18,569 nucleotides of DNA from a virus. Its lineage: Duplodnaviria; Heunggongvirae; Uroviricota; Caudoviricetes. Positions 352-8,624 of the stretch are shown here, piece by piece. The first letter of the stretch is position 1. Each line of letters starts with the position of its first letter. Where the stretch lies: the IMG/VR virus record IMGVR_UViG_2660237930_000004; one strand, written 5' to 3'. The notes under the pieces were generated by a model. It was not told the DNA's origin, did not search any database, and saw only the letters and a program-made list of their open reading frames with translations. A program made the position numbers and the translations under genes.

Positions 352-651
352 TCACCCACGATTAACCAACAGCCAGACCAGCAGACACGCCACCACCGGC
401 ACAGCAAAATCCATCAGGCTTGCCACATCCCATGCACGTGTATCAAAACCGCCCCACCACGGCATATTCATTCGCTTGCCATGCCCGAACATTTCGATCC
501 AGCGATATTCTGCCTGGGTGTGTTCACGCGCAATGAAGAACGTACAACCGGCTATCGCCCCGTAAGCCCAGTTCCCGGTAAAAAGACCAATCAGTAGCTG
601 CGCAGCCACAGCACAAAGCGCATGAAGGAAAGGTGTTATATCCATTTTCAT
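352..651 (-). CDS. Small hypothetical membrane protein (about 97-99 aa, 2-3 predicted hydrophobic helices); possible accessory (moron) gene
   Basis: ORF 352..660 (track start is TTG); in-frame ATGs at 651 and 645, the latter with AGGA about 6 nt upstream. Hydrophobic stretches FLHALCAVAAQLLIGLF and VASLMDFAVPVVACLLVWLLV. The overlapping plus-strand ORF 178..597 has no protein-like features. Start uncertain; family not recognised. Confidence 0.45.
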   Translation of the reverse strand: MKMDITPFLHALCAVAAQLLIGLFTGNWAYGAIAGCTFFIAREHTQAEYRWIEMFGHGKRMNMPWWGGFDTRAWDVASLMDFAVPVVACLLVWLLVNRG

Positions 652-687: not shown

Positions 688-1728
688 TTATTTAGACGCA
701 AGCGCCGCCTCAATTGCAGATAATCTTTGTCTTAATTCTGCGTTTTCTTCTTCCAGTGCTGTTATTCTGTCGTCTGACTCTCTGGCTACCTGAACAAGCA
801 AGCCAGTAACACCAGAATAATCTACTGTGTAATAACGTTCACCTTCTTCACCTTCCGATCCGCTCGCACCGTCCTGATATTTCATTGCGGAACCTACAAC
901 TTCTGGGATTGCTTCCAGAGCTTCCTGTGCAATGACACCAGCATAGGGCATACCGTTTTCTTTAAGCGTGTATGTATAGCCGTTCATTTTACGGATGCGG
1001 TCGGTTGCATTATCGATCACCTGAATGTTGTCTTTCAGATCCCGGTCGGAATGCTGGTTAAATGCGGTGGCATGACATGCACCATTAACGCTTAACATAT
1101 AGGTGTTATCGGTATTTTTCTGCGCATAGAACATATAAGCGCCACCATCAACACCGACTTCATAAACAACAGGACGGCTGGAGTTGCCCCACAATTGAGC
1201 AGTAACACCAGCATAAGCGGTTCCCTGTGTGTTTAATGTCATGGTTGACCCATGATTGGCATATTTGATCTGTAATGTGTCGGTGTAATCAAATTTAATA
1301 AGCGCGTTACTTCCACGCTTGCTGTATGACATAAGGCAGTTACCCATTTTGAGGTATCCGCTGTCACCGGGAAAAATCATCGTACCGCCATAAAGGTTGG
1401 TAAAGTCCCAGCAAATGTTTGTCCCGTTATCGTTCAGGTTAAGGCGCGCCATTGCGTTACCTGGACTGTCTATCCATTTTTTGAGGTATAGTTCGCAATA
1501 CGCATCCTCAACACCTGCCGTCCTGTGAGTTGAGCGGAGTTTTCTCCCAAATATAGCTCCGCTAGTTGGCAATACCTGCTGATACCATGAAGCAGACCAG
1601 TCACCAACGATTTCATCTTTGCTGTCTACATATAATTTTGTTGCGTAGCTTCCTTGATCGTTTTTTAATTTGCTAACGTCGGATTTTAGCGTTTTGATGT
1701 CATCAGGAATTACTGTCGATGTAGCCAT
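688..1728 (-). CDS. Tail-fibre/tailspike-like protein (346 aa) with C-terminal intramolecular chaperone (peptidase S74-like) domain
   Basis: GAGGA RBS 5 nt upstream of ATG. C-terminal about 110 aa carries ...NQH-SDRDLKDNI...GYTY... then a heptad-rich coiled coil (RITALEEENAELRQRLSAIEAALASK), matching the Ser/Lys autocleavage signature of phage fibre chaperone domains. The N-terminal about 237 aa looks beta-rich. More AT-rich than the tail backbone. Confidence 0.6.
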   Translation of the reverse strand: MATSTVIPDDIKTLKSDVSKLKNDQGSYATKLYVDSKDEIVGDWSASWYQQVLPTSGAIFGRKLRSTHRTAGVEDAYCELYLKKWIDSPGNAMARLNLNDNGTNICWDFTNLYGGTMIFPGDSGYLKMGNCLMSYSKRGSNALIKFDYTDTLQIKYANHGSTMTLNTQGTAYAGVTAQLWGNSSRPVVYEVGVDGGAYMFYAQKNTDNTYMLSVNGACHATAFNQHSDRDLKDNIQVIDNATDRIRKMNGYTYTLKENGMPYAGVIAQEALEAIPEVVGSAMKYQDGASGSEGEEGERYYTVDYSGVTGLLVQVARESDDRITALEEENAELRQRLSAIEAALASK

Positions 1729-1737
1729 TTTTCTTCC

Positions 1738-2019
1738 TCACATCCAGCCACGAAGTTGATGCTCAACAGCAACCACGTATTCATCGAATAATGACGATAT
1801 TTGCGAATCATTAATGATGCGCACGTTTACAAAATATCCGTCTTCCTTAACACATACCGGTTCGCCATCTTCAGTCAGTTCTCCGGTTTCTTTGTACACG
1901 TTACCTATCACGTCGATAAGAATATCATCCTGCATCGACTCGTCATCATAATAGCCAATACTCTCCATAAAGGCCGAAAAGTCGGCCCTGTCTTCAAATT
2001 TGAGTGTTAAATCTTTCAT
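1738..2019 (-). CDS. Small acidic hypothetical protein (93 aa)
   Basis: ORF start overlaps the stf stop (TAATG, translational coupling); its TGA stop overlaps the RBS of the 346-aa gene. Strongly acidic (D/E-rich). No family recognised. Confidence 0.5.
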   Translation of the reverse strand: MKDLTLKFEDRADFSAFMESIGYYDDESMQDDILIDVIGNVYKETGELTEDGEPVCVKEDGYFVNVRIINDSQISSLFDEYVVAVEHQLRGWM

Positions 2020-4418
2020 TAGATTGACTCCCCCATTTGTGCCTCAGTTAATTCTTTATGCCAAATGCGTAAATTTTTCACATGACCGAACAGGTGTCTG
2101 TTGCCACTGGATGATTGTCCACCGATATTAATATTACCGGCAGTATAACGTTGCAATGTATGCAGAGACGGGGAGCTGCCACCTAAAATTCCATCAACAA
2201 CAACCTGCAACTGTTTATCTTCTGTAAACTTAAAGCCAGTAACAAATTTCCTTTTCTCTCTATTCCCATATGCTTTATATTCTGTTTTTGTTCCTTTGCC
2301 ATTGGTGATAATTAGCCTTTTACCACGAGTGGTAAAACCAAAATACATATAACTTTCATCAGAAACTTCAGTCGTCGCCCCTGTAATTGAGATATTAAGC
2401 AAACGCGCAGAGCCTTCTAAATTAGGCATTTCAGAATCCCAATTAACATTAACTTCCATGAGAACACTAACTGGTGGAGTTGCCCAATTGAAAGGTATAG
2501 GTATGATTACCTGGTCACTTGCTCTCGTGGCACCGACCTCTGTTGTGATGATAAAAGATGACGCGTTTAGTCCCTTTTCGAATTGAGGGGTTGTTAACAT
2601 TAATTTATCGCCAGACTTGATTGATCGTTGATGTGCTCCAAACTCAAAACGCCCATACATATTTTTTGCTTCTGGTGATTTGTAGGTAAACTCAACACGA
2701 ATCCATCCATTAGACTCTCTGAATATGTTATAAGTTGCCGCCTCACCTCCAGAATAACTCAACATATCGCCAGTCTCGCAATCAATATATGCGCCAGCGG
2801 TCAGTGTGTTACTTGAGCCATCGTCGTTAACATATGATATTCTTGGACGCAACGTGATAATACCATCCCCACTTACTTTTTTAACTCTGCAGGATAAAGT
2901 AACTGATTCATTTGCCGAAACTGAAATAACCCTGGTATATCCAGTAGAAATTAATGTCGCCCTTTCAGTTGTGGATGTTTCTTTAACGCCAAACAAACCA
3001 TAACTGAAACCATACTCATCAACTCCCGTGGTAATAGTTAAGTTAGCAGTGTCATAGTTCCACGATACTGGTGTATTCGTATAAGAAAAAGTATTCGTTC
3101 TCTGACCTTCAATGAGCAGACCATCTTTTTCAAAACGTGGTTCATTTATCGCTGATTCAGCAAAACACCCAGACTTATCTATATACGTTGCAGTTGACGC
3201 CCTGGTAAATGAAACAACCTTTTCAGACGGCAATGCAATAACATCGTCACCAACTGTGATGCTCTTATATCCAGGAGCAAACCCGGTAATCATATCCAGT
3301 GAATCGTTAAACGGTATCCACACCTCAGGTAACGGCTGTAAGACATATTTATACGGCTCCGCAGCCTGGCTTGCGTACTCTCTGGCTGCATCTTCGCTTG
3401 CTTTAGCTGCCGTCTGGCTTGCTGCCGATGCTTTCGCTGAGTTCGCAGCCGCTGTTTCGCTCGCCTTTGCGTTGGTTTCACTGGTTTTTGCTGCTTTTTG
3501 ACTGTTAGCTGATGCAGTGGCAGAAGCAGCCGCCGCACTTGCAGAACCAGCTGCAGCACTCTCGCTTTCAGCTGCTGCAGCCTGACTACTTTTCGCCGCA
3601 GTTTCACTGGCTTTGGCATTCGTTTCGCTGGTCTTCGCTGCTGTCTGGCTGGACTTTGCGTTAGTTTCACTCGTCTTCGCAGCTTTCTGGCTGTTAGCCG
3701 CAGCAGTTGCTGATCCGGCTGCTGAAGTCGCAGAACCGGCCGCCGCACTCTCGCTGTCAGCTGCTGCATCCTGACTGCTTTTCGCCGCAGTTTCACTGGC
3801 TCTGGCATTCGTTTCGCTGGTTTTCGCTGCCGTCTGGCTGGACTTCGCGTTGGTTTCGCTCGTCTTTGCGGCTGTCTCACTGTTTTTCGCGTTGGTTTCT
3901 GATTTTTTGGCTGCAGTCGCGGAGTTTGCCGATGCAGTCTGTGAGGCCGCTGCCGCCTGTGCGCTGTTAGCTGCGTTCGTTTCTGAGGTTTTCGCCGCGT
4001 TCTTCGATGATGCCGCTGCTGTTTCGGATTTCTTTGCCGCCGCTGCGCTCTGAGAGGCGGCTTCAGCGTTGCGTGCCGCTTCTTCCACCATTTCCTCAAA
4101 ACGACGCAATGCCTCCGGCATGACATCATCTTCCGTCATGGCACCGAGAAAATCATTCAGCGTCCCCGGCTTAGAATCTTCATACACGGTGATGGTCCCG
4201 GCATGTGAAGGCGGAAAACCTTCAACCAGCAGGATAACGCTGTACTGGCCATACTCAACATCCATGCTGTAACGCCCGGCTTCATCCGGATTTTCAGAGG
4301 CCACCGTGTTCACCAGTACCGTGGTGCTGTTACGCTTTGCCTTCAGTTGAATAGTGCAGTTCTGTATTGGTTTTCCCGCACCATCTTTCAGCACACCTGA
4401 GATTTTTACTGCTGCCAT
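2019..4418 (-). CDS. stf: Side tail fibre protein: lambda Stf-like N-terminus, Ala/Ser/Thr-rich repeat shaft, non-lambda C-terminal domain with LamG/ConA-like lectin signature
   Basis: N-terminus MAAVKISGVLKDGAGKPIQNCTIQLKAKRNSTT... matches lambda Stf from memory. Likely start is ATG at 4416..4418 (GGAG RBS) rather than the GTG at 4424 used by the track. C-terminus ends ...GNRHLFGHVKNLRIWHKELTEAQM, typical of LamG_3/ConA-like jelly-roll domains. Sequence below about 3300 is visibly more AT-rich. Confidence 0.8.
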   Translation of the reverse strand: MAAVKISGVLKDGAGKPIQNCTIQLKAKRNSTTVLVNTVASENPDEAGRYSMDVEYGQYSVILLVEGFPPSHAGTITVYEDSKPGTLNDFLGAMTEDDVMPEALRRFEEMVEEAARNAEAASQSAAAAKKSETAAASSKNAAKTSETNAANSAQAAAASQTASANSATAAKKSETNAKNSETAAKTSETNAKSSQTAAKTSETNARASETAAKSSQDAAADSESAAAGSATSAAGSATAAANSQKAAKTSETNAKSSQTAAKTSETNAKASETAAKSSQAAAAESESAAAGSASAAAASATASANSQKAAKTSETNAKASETAAANSAKASAASQTAAKASEDAAREYASQAAEPYKYVLQPLPEVWIPFNDSLDMITGFAPGYKSITVGDDVIALPSEKVVSFTRASTATYIDKSGCFAESAINEPRFEKDGLLIEGQRTNTFSYTNTPVSWNYDTANLTITTGVDEYGFSYGLFGVKETSTTERATLISTGYTRVISVSANESVTLSCRVKKVSGDGIITLRPRISYVNDDGSSNTLTAGAYIDCETGDMLSYSGGEAATYNIFRESNGWIRVEFTYKSPEAKNMYGRFEFGAHQRSIKSGDKLMLTTPQFEKGLNASSFIITTEVGATRASDQVIIPIPFNWATPPVSVLMEVNVNWDSEMPNLEGSARLLNISITGATTEVSDESYMYFGFTTRGKRLIITNGKGTKTEYKAYGNREKRKFVTGFKFTEDKQLQVVVDGILGGSSPSLHTLQRYTAGNINIGGQSSSGNRHLFGHVKNLRIWHKELTEAQMGESI
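3430..3970 (-). repeat. Tandem repeats of about 189 bp (63 aa) within stf, with nested KTSETNA-type 21-bp sub-repeats
   Basis: Protein segment KAAKTSETNAKSSQTAAKTSETNA[RK]ASETAAKSSQ...SESAAAGSA...NSQ occurs twice in tandem plus partial copies. At DNA level ctgactactt/ttcgccgcag at 3582..3600 recurs at 3771..3790 (offset 189). Boundaries approximate. Confidence 0.7.
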
Positions 4419-4429
4419 ATCCACTCCAC

Positions 4430-5130: not shown

Positions 5131-6044
5131 CGTATTGGGGTTATAAAATTCAGCTGATACTGATGCCTGCAGTGGCTTTCTTCATCACAACAACCAGCAA
5201 ATCGCTGATACTTGCTGTGGGATACCAACCATTTACCCACCATGCTGATACAGAAAACTCCAGTGTCATTACACCACTGCCTGCAGGCATATCAATAACA
5301 CCCGTGTAAATCAGAGTATTATCCAGAGCCGTTCGGTTATAAATTTCAGCCCCGTTTTTCTTCACTATCAGGCGGCATGACGAATAAGTATCGCTATTCT
5401 CCCGCTCATGTCTGGCACCGCAGAAAGCCACCGCTGGAATAACAATTTGCCGGTCAAACGACTGATCGTCATAAACCCTGACGGTAATAGTCCCTGATGG
5501 CCACCGCTCCGGTGCACGGGAGTCCCGGGGGAAAGCTTTGCCCACTGTTTTAACGAGATCGCCTTCAATCTGGTTCGCGGACAGTTTTCCCAGAACCCGA
5601 CAGTTCTCGTTAATCGTGACATTATTGAGCGTCCCGGAGTTCGCATTCACGTTACCGCTGATATCGGCATTTTTCGCCGTCAGCCGCCCGTCCGGTGTCA
5701 GGGAAAATACCGGAGGATTGCCGCCACTGGTAATGGTGGGAGCCGTCAGATACTTCAGGAACACTTCGTTCATGAATATCTGGTTGCCCTGCGCCACAAA
5801 CATCGGCGTTTCATTCCCGTTTGCCGGGTCAATAAACGCGATACGGTTAGCGGCAACCAGGAACTGGCTCAGTTTGCCTTCCTCCGTATCCTCCATACTA
5901 AGGCCAAGCCCCGCGACATAATGCCTGCCGTCTTCGGTCTGCTCAATTTTGACGCCCCACATGGCATTCCATTTATCGTTGGCGTCCTTCCACTCTTTCG
6001 AAAACTCCTCCAGTTTGCTGGCGTTATCCTCCGTCAGCTCGACT

Positions 6045-6121
6045 TTTTCCAGCAGCTCCTTGCCGAGATGGGACTTTTTCGCCAGCAGCTCCTTTTCCAG
6101 CAGCTCCTTGCCGAGATGGGA
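6045..6121. repeat. 29-bp exact direct repeat with 48-bp period inside J (in-frame repeated [10 protein letters not shown] peptide)
   Basis: Positions 6045..6073 and 6093..6121 are identical; protein reads [35 protein letters not shown]. Confidence 0.7.
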
Positions 6122-6245
6122 TTCGGTTATCTGGCCTTTGAAAAAATCCAGGTAACCTTCCGCATCATCGCTCGGCTGACCAACAGCCTCCACGAATGCC
6201 GATTTGCCAACGGTGTTCACACTGCGGATATAAAAGTAATAATCA

Positions 6246-8624
<2,379 letters not shown>

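Follow-up and report, generated by a model that had tools for sequence, protein, structure and literature searches.

ORF93, a small acidic protein encoded directly behind a lectin-tipped side tail fibre, as a candidate partner of the fibre tip in six phage lineages

The small gene ORF93 lies between two fibre genes of an E. coli prophage, and on balance we lean slightly towards the view that its product is a dedicated trans-acting partner of the Stf-type fibre-tip module encoded immediately upstream, likely as an assembly or trimerisation helper. The DNA analysed here, hereafter the window, is a stretch of 18,569 nucleotides representing the lambda-like late operon of the prophage, and the 3.9 kb surrounding ORF93 match several complete E. 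coli chromosomes at 99.9% identity. The reading as an assembly helper draws on the position of the gene after a fibre gene, its translational coupling, its linkage with the tip cassette, its persistence where the second fibre is missing, the lack of a Peptidase_S74 domain in Stf and the complementary charge of the putative partners. Assembly proteins are classically encoded directly 3' of their fibre genes, examples being lambda stf-tfa, T4 37-38 and Mu S-U. A helper gene at this place is therefore an expected pattern, and ORF93 is a solid lead that is unsurprising in principle.

ORF93 is a real gene under purifying selection. Its product (MKDLTLKF...EHQLRGWM) contains 22 Asp and Glu residues versus 7 Lys and Arg residues, has a pI of 4.05 and a net charge of -15.4, and is the most acidic product per residue among the window genes. 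The first-pass annotation had described a strongly acidic 93-aa ORF, sandwiched between two fibre genes and translationally coupled to both, and each of these points was borne out: the start codon of ORF93 overlaps the stf stop codon by one base, its TGA lies inside the ribosome-binding site of the next gene, whose ATG follows 9 nt past the ORF93 stop, and both neighbours match fibre families (Table 1). The 145 related loci that we sampled comprise phage records, IMG/VR prophages, one metagenomic contig and the window; the ORF93 homologues (85–110 aa) are intact in 143 out of 143 cases. Additionally, 40 distinct alleles of the 93-aa type give a dN/dS of 0.21, with 19, 17 and 37 variable sites at the first, second and third codon positions, respectively. 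The intact frames, the low dN/dS and the third-position bias show that ORF93 is not a random reading frame. Distant members keep the MKDLTLKF N-terminus, and this establishes the start codon. The GC content is 41.5% for ORF93, 46.8% for stf and 44.6% for the 346-aa fibre gene, versus 54.2% for the whole window, and the AT-rich fibre cassette (688-4424) fits a horizontally exchanged module.

Table 1. Features of the ORF93 region, in window coordinates.
Feature	Position	Strand	Remarks
97-aa predicted membrane protein	352..645	-	phrog_1443; last gene of the cassette; likely start ATG at 645
Second fibre, 346 aa	688..1728	-	Peptidase_S74 (895-1050), E 4.8e-14; PHROG phrog_4563 tail fibre family
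Second-fibre N-terminal module (MATSTVIPDDIKTLK...)	1651..1728	-	seen only directly after ORF93 homologues
Ribosome-binding site GAGGAAG of the 346-aa gene	1733..1739	-	read from the sequence; overlaps the ORF93 TGA
ORF93	1738..2019	-	93 aa, acidic; member of phrog_1361
Stop/start overlap TAATG, Stf/ORF93	2017..2021	-	one base common to the ORF93 ATG (2019) and the Stf TAA
Shine-Dalgarno GGGGGAG of ORF93	2028..2034	-	read from the sequence; within the 3' end of stf; ends 8 nt upstream of the ATG
Stf side tail fibre, 801 aa	2019..4424	-	Pfam phage_tail_N at residues 5-134, E 1.6e-68; phrog_1419 over its full length
Stf C-terminal module, aa 365-801	2022..3332	-	constant upstream partner; homologous in every upstream fibre examined
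Terminal LamG/ConA-like lectin domain, Stf aa 642-801	2022..2501	-	Pfam Laminin_G_3, 29.2 bits, cut-off 27.6

The synteny around ORF93 is kept in six phage lineages and strongly supports a fibre-associated role, which the first-pass annotation had favoured on the basis of gene position. Among 50,697 phage records, tblastn detects the ORF93 family in 181-211; the C-terminal 200 residues of Stf match 202, with a near-identical breakdown by genus. The lineages are lambdoid phages (phage 21, mEp460, 2G7b), Drexlerviridae, Dhillonvirus, Queuovirinae (Seuratvirus), T5-like Markadamsvirinae and rV5-like Vequintavirinae. A tail-fibre gene lies directly 5' of the ORF93 homologue in all annotated examples. 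Specifically, 139 of the 143 homologues stand directly after a fibre ORF that bears the Stf C-terminal module, and in 137 of these 139 loci the two genes overlap, by 4 nt (ATGA) in 80 and by 1 nt (TAATG) in 57. The four exceptions are one stf disrupted by an IS (Lambda_4C10) and loci whose fetched stretch does not include a complete fibre ORF upstream. Even a metagenomic member with 38% identity overlaps the stop codon of a 585-aa protein that ends in the Stf C-terminal module. The linkage to the upstream fibre is thus near-invariant, but it is not symmetrical as the earlier description had implied: the constant partner is the C-terminal module of the upstream fibre, whereas the downstream fibre is optional.

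Several individual loci illustrate this arrangement. In Lambda_4C10 (locus L008, 2417-4833), three genes annotated as 'mobile element protein' interrupt stf right upstream of an intact ORF93 homologue, and phages D2 and 1W have a comparable 3-kb gap between an stf fragment and the small gene. Phage rV5 carries a different gp41 allele and lacks any annotated gene here, whereas rV5_ev146 has both the C-terminal module and the small gene, a contrast which indicates that module and small gene travel as a cassette. The Dhillonvirus homologue (Ioannina, locus L007, 5001-6072) is shorter, at 85 aa, and has a deletion within the acidic loop, and the Dhillonvirus loci encode a 242-247-aa 'putative tail fiber' 70-85 nt further on, which shows neither the TVIPxDIxxLK start nor a detectable S74 match.

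These data also bear on the suggestion that ORF93 is an anti-defence factor or a DNA mimic of the Ocr/ArdA kind which happens to lie in the fibre region. We consider this highly improbable. Acidity is the one property of the protein that speaks for it (a small product with pI 4.05 and charge -15), but the translational coupling within a late structural operon for the tail fibre, the one-to-one link with a fibre-tip module in temperate and virulent phages of six lineages and the small globular α/β fold predicted for the product all point the other way. Furthermore, no copy of ORF93 away from a fibre gene was found among the sampled loci, and ORF93 has neither Ocr/ArdA-type sequence or structural similarity nor an early or leading-region position.

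The protein itself belongs to a narrow family. Pfam and NCBIfam contain no family matching ORF93 at E<=1, in line with the earlier statement that the product matches no family; this statement does not extend to PHROG, in which ORF93 residues 1-93 align to positions 1-92 of the 92-position profile phrog_1361 (function unknown) with an E-value of 2.5e-46. A weaker PHROG match, to phrog_18574 (E 5.2e-08), corresponds to the rV5-like branch. An exhaustive HMMER search of 1.84 billion representative proteins gave only 51 ORF93 clusters at E<=0.001, and in 49 of them the protein is small, with 150 aa or fewer; the remaining two hits, of 1,797 and 2,928 aa, align repeatedly over only a short stretch of 26-30 residues, and no natural fusion of ORF93 to a fibre is present among the 51 representative clusters. 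Close relatives are limited to Escherichia in one-genome-per-species data. A 2.8-kb contig of a metagenome-assembled genome binned as Collinsella encodes a homologue with 91% identity, and this contig is in all likelihood a piece of an Escherichia prophage placed in the wrong bin.

A confident AlphaFold2 model of ORF93, built from a 24-sequence alignment, has a pLDDT of 85 and a pTM of 0.71. It predicts a compact α/β fold of the order beta-alpha-alpha-beta4, comprised of five strands and two main helices, with a conserved P-x-R-x-W motif on the less confident C-terminal tail. The model has no informative relative among solved structures, and a sequence search of the PDB using the family profile stayed at chance level (E 0.2). 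The remote homology search and structure prediction that the first-pass annotation had proposed therefore led to phrog_1361, apart from the weaker match above, and to the α/β model; the clear homology to a characterised fibre assembly protein that would have spoken against its proposal did not appear in Pfam or NCBIfam at E<=1. With no Pfam or NCBIfam match and a differing predicted fold, ORF93 falls outside every described family of fibre chaperones. This is also a point against a helper role, since ORF93 has no likeness to any known fibre chaperone in sequence (Pfam, NCBIfam) or in fold. No literature on the ORF93 protein was found, and the BASEL papers do not discuss its homologue.

The ~430-aa C-terminal modules of the upstream fibres are 27-53% identical to Stf 365-801, with homology reaching the last residue, and the N-terminal and shaft regions of these fibres differ. 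Within the module, Stf residues 437-635 correspond to the NCBIfam 'phage head spike fiber domain', giving a GTA-head-spike-fibre-like domain ahead of the lectin domain, and the last 160 residues match Laminin_G_3 at a score barely over the threshold. The lectin domain combines a hypervariable core with conserved edges. Conserved blocks of the module are PLPDVWIPFNDSLDMITGF, EPRFE-DGLLIEGQRTN and ATPQVE-G-ASSFIIT-TRASD, followed by the C-terminal block RIGGQT-G-RHLFGH-RN-RIWHK-LTD-Q (RHLFGHxRNxRIWHKxLTDxQ). The homologous end of IrisVonRoten gp22 has been described by the BASEL authors as a protruding galectin-like domain (PMC11990801). Fibres with such a lectin tip form a class represented in many E. 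coli prophages as well as in more than 200 sequenced phages of E. coli and Salmonella. The Stf shaft contains long repeats rich in Ala, Ser, Thr and Glu (AAKTSETNAKSSQT...), which give rise to long artefactual ORFs in the remaining frames and on the opposite strand, such as one of 279 aa at 3290-4129.

Pfam detects no Peptidase_S74 domain in Stf. In virions of phage AKFV33, peptides of the Stf homologue ORF137 were recovered up to residue 781 of 784 (PMC3326045, Table S2), so the mature fibre retains its C-terminal module, which is no self-cleaving chaperone domain. Taken together, the lack of S74 and the retained C-terminus indicate that the Stf-type fibre is not matured by a self-cleaving domain. 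The lectin domain is basic, with a pI of 9.2 in Stf, 9.1-9.6 in 9 of 11 lineages and 7.9 and 8.3 in the remaining two. The ORF93 homologues have the opposite character (pI 4.05-4.5), and the fibre as a whole is acidic.

We therefore favour the following sequence of events, in which binding, chaperone activity and the later fate of ORF93 are what we infer. Through coupled translation right after Stf, ORF93 would be made beside its partner and in step with it. Its acidic globular domain and PxRxW tail may bind the conserved basic edges of the lectin domain, and this binding could keep the three C-termini soluble and in register, such that the fibre trimerises from its C-terminal end. Such a role would parallel that of lambda Tfa and T4 gp38 on other tips and that of Peptidase_S74 within the 346-aa fibre. 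Afterwards ORF93 might be released or kept on the tip; if kept, it may form part of a seat for the optional second fibre. The virion proteome of AKFV33 was obtained from four bands excised from a 10% gel, in which a 10-kDa protein lies beyond detection (PMC3326045).

ConA-like lectin domains often fold by themselves and so have no evident need of a chaperone, which counts against a helper. The same habit of unaided folding fits another reading, in which ORF93 is not needed for folding and instead regulates or masks the tip, either by covering its basic glycan-binding face in the cytoplasm or by holding the fibres retracted until release. This proposal shares with a folding partner the linkage and the charge complementarity, and present data do not separate it from a chaperone; there is, however, no precedent to point to in this fibre class, and we rate it as improbable.

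Comparison of closely related loci reveals how the cassette is reshuffled. The window and phage 2G7b share 98-99% identity in ORF93 (98%) and in the 346-aa fibre, but only 39% in the Stf tips; G3B1 shows the reverse pattern, with a Stf tip identity of 72% and an ORF93 identity of 53%. Comparison of the lectin domain (2022-2501 in the window) with its counterparts in 2G7b, PhiR46_1 and G3B1 shows that the core has been swapped independently of both ORF93 and the second fibre, the tip identity ranging from 39 to 74% and that of ORF93 from 53 to 98%. The variable core is flanked by the SSFIIT..TRASD and RIGGQT..RHLFGH motifs, which resemble recombination anchors. As judged from these alignments, the lectin core is exchanged by recombination between the conserved flanks, leaving ORF93 untouched. 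ORF93 does not co-vary with the core, and any contact would thus be made on the conserved edges or with loose specificity. Co-variation was also considered as a test for the partner of ORF93 and was rejected: ORF93 tracks the downstream gene over the Stf tip, but this signal is confounded by linkage and by breakpoints inside Stf.

The gene downstream of ORF93 is variable. Of the sampled loci, 80 have a second fibre with an S74 domain after ORF93 and 6 more have a truncated copy (~60%); the second fibre is absent in 46-48 of 143 loci, in which the 97-aa membrane protein gene is found instead, these proportions being indicative only since the sample is biased to relatives of the window and phage 21. 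The window and phage 21 types of ORF93 share 54% identity. In phage 21 and PhiR40_1, the gene for the 97-aa protein directly follows the ORF93 homologue; the annotators of phage 21 predicted two transmembrane segments for this protein. In rV5-like phages, a baseplate or tail gene comes after the homologue without an adjacent second fibre, and the downstream genes are unrelated between lineages. In loci that lack the second fibre, ORF93 still shows a dN/dS of 0.31, with 27, 28 and 66 variable sites by codon position. This persistence of selection indicates that ORF93 has a function independent of the second fibre.

The second fibres are unrelated to each other except for a common N-terminal module, M-x-T-x-TVIP-x-DI-x-x-LK. 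The module was found in 59 phage records, and in each of the 19 records amenable to cross-checking its start lies 9-20 nt past an ORF93 homologue. The N-terminal module of the second fibre thus depends on the placement of ORF93, and not vice versa. Phages without the cassette can also carry the body of the T5-like distal fibre; in them the match does not start until query residues 27-49, and other attachment modes have been described for their distal fibres by the BASEL authors.

This pattern raises the possibility that ORF93 is a structural joint retained on the Stf tip, a socket into which the N-terminal peptide of the second fibre plugs to yield a branched fibre. Besides the regular spacing of the MxTxTVIPxDIxxLK module behind ORF93, the location of the gene between both fibre genes agrees with such a joint, as does an ORF93 identity that follows the downstream N-terminus more closely than the Stf tip, although this latter trend is explicable by DNA linkage and by breakpoints inside the Stf lectin domain. 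The homologue in IrisVonRoten, gp23, bears the annotation 'tail fiber protein', which is no evidence of function, and gp24 of this phage has been modelled onto the proximal fibre gp22 (PMC11990801). As the sole role of ORF93, however, a joint is hard to reconcile with phage 21 and the other loci that have an intact ORF93 under selection and no second fibre, or with the rV5-like loci described above, and we regard it as unlikely. It can be combined with a helper function. Similarly tentative is the wider idea that ORF93 on the lectin tip is a universal socket, such that unrelated distal fibres with the MxTxTVIPxDIxxLK plug could be swapped onto the proximal fibre; if true, it would amount to a plug-and-socket system of branched fibres common to lambdoid, T1-like, T5-like, Dhillonvirus and Seuratvirus phages.

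The proposed folding partner can be set beside several known systems. Lambda Tfa, T4 gp38, Mu gpU and P2 gpG (Caudo_TAP, PF02413) resemble ORF93 in that their genes lie immediately 3' of a fibre gene, are coupled to it and form a cassette with a particular type of fibre tip; by analogy, ORF93 may likewise act in the folding or trimerisation of its tip. In contrast, Caudo_TAP proteins have ~175-195 aa, so ORF93 (93 aa) is half their size, the predicted fold differs, and Caudo_TAP serves a gp37-type needle tip rather than a LamG-like lectin module; PF02413 and the corresponding NCBIfam models do not match ORF93 at E<=1. T4 gp57A is, like ORF93, a small acidic protein thought to act in fibre assembly. 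It is an all-helical oligomer that is unlinked to any single fibre gene and serves several fibres, whereas ORF93 is predicted to be α/β, has no all-helical coiled coil and is tied to a single fibre module. The Peptidase_S74 domain (PF13884) of T5 pb1, K1F endosialidase and the 346-aa fibre tackles the same step as that proposed for ORF93, namely the start of trimer folding at the C-terminus, but it acts in cis and cleaves itself off, while ORF93 is a separate polypeptide; PF13884 has no match in ORF93, and the domain sits in the neighbouring 346-aa protein. ORF93 thus looks like a new and unrelated version of a familiar type of fibre-helper gene.

Direct homologues in the same order are found in IrisVonRoten (BASEL Bas32; gp22-gp23-gp24) and AKFV33 (ORF137-136-135). 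These loci encode a proximal fibre with a 'galectin-like' C-terminal domain, a 92-aa or 88-aa protein, respectively, and a distal S74 fibre (PMC11990801; PMC3326045). The AKFV33 paper names only ORFs 135 and 137 as fibre proteins and assigns no role to ORF136 (PMC3326045). The BASEL paper places gp24 on the proximal fibre and leaves the small protein undiscussed, and one of its passages labels the proximal fibre Gp23, not Gp22 (PMC11990801). The growth of IrisVonRoten on K-12 with restored O16 antigen is ascribed in the BASEL papers to recognition through the lateral fibres (PMC8594841). The branched LtfA/LtfB of the T5-like phage DT57C is likewise a lateral fibre from two genes, the second hung on the first; as a model for the present locus it was rejected, because both of its proteins carry S74 and neither paper reports a small gene in between. 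This difference in architecture suggests a separate solution to branching.

In AKFV33 (locus L147, 1869-4490), ORF136 starts with GTG and lies in frame with ORF137, with one TAA between them. The gel mass of ORF137 (95.8 kDa) exceeds the calculated value of 83.1 kDa, and ORF136 would contribute another 10.1 kDa (PMC3326045). The excess is probably anomalous migration of an acidic protein, and readthrough from ORF137 into ORF136 may be an alternative source.

Fibre swapping is the main route to phage re-targeting, and without the cognate helper a fibre often does not assemble. If this widespread class of lectin-tipped fibres requires ORF93, the gene must move with the fibre tip in such engineering. 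If the proposed role is correct, ORF93 would add a structurally unrelated family to the few fibre assembly or accessory proteins, and hundreds of entries now named 'hypothetical protein', together with at least one 'tail fiber protein', could gain a consistent label.

Elsewhere in the window, the gene for the central tail fibre J (5150-8621, minus strand) is split into a 792-aa ORF at 6243-8621 and a 356-aa ORF at 5150-6220, which match consecutive parts of the PHROG J profile (263-1030 and 1046-1315, respectively). The split implies a frameshift or stop codon around 6220-6243, which may reflect a defective prophage or an assembly error at this point.
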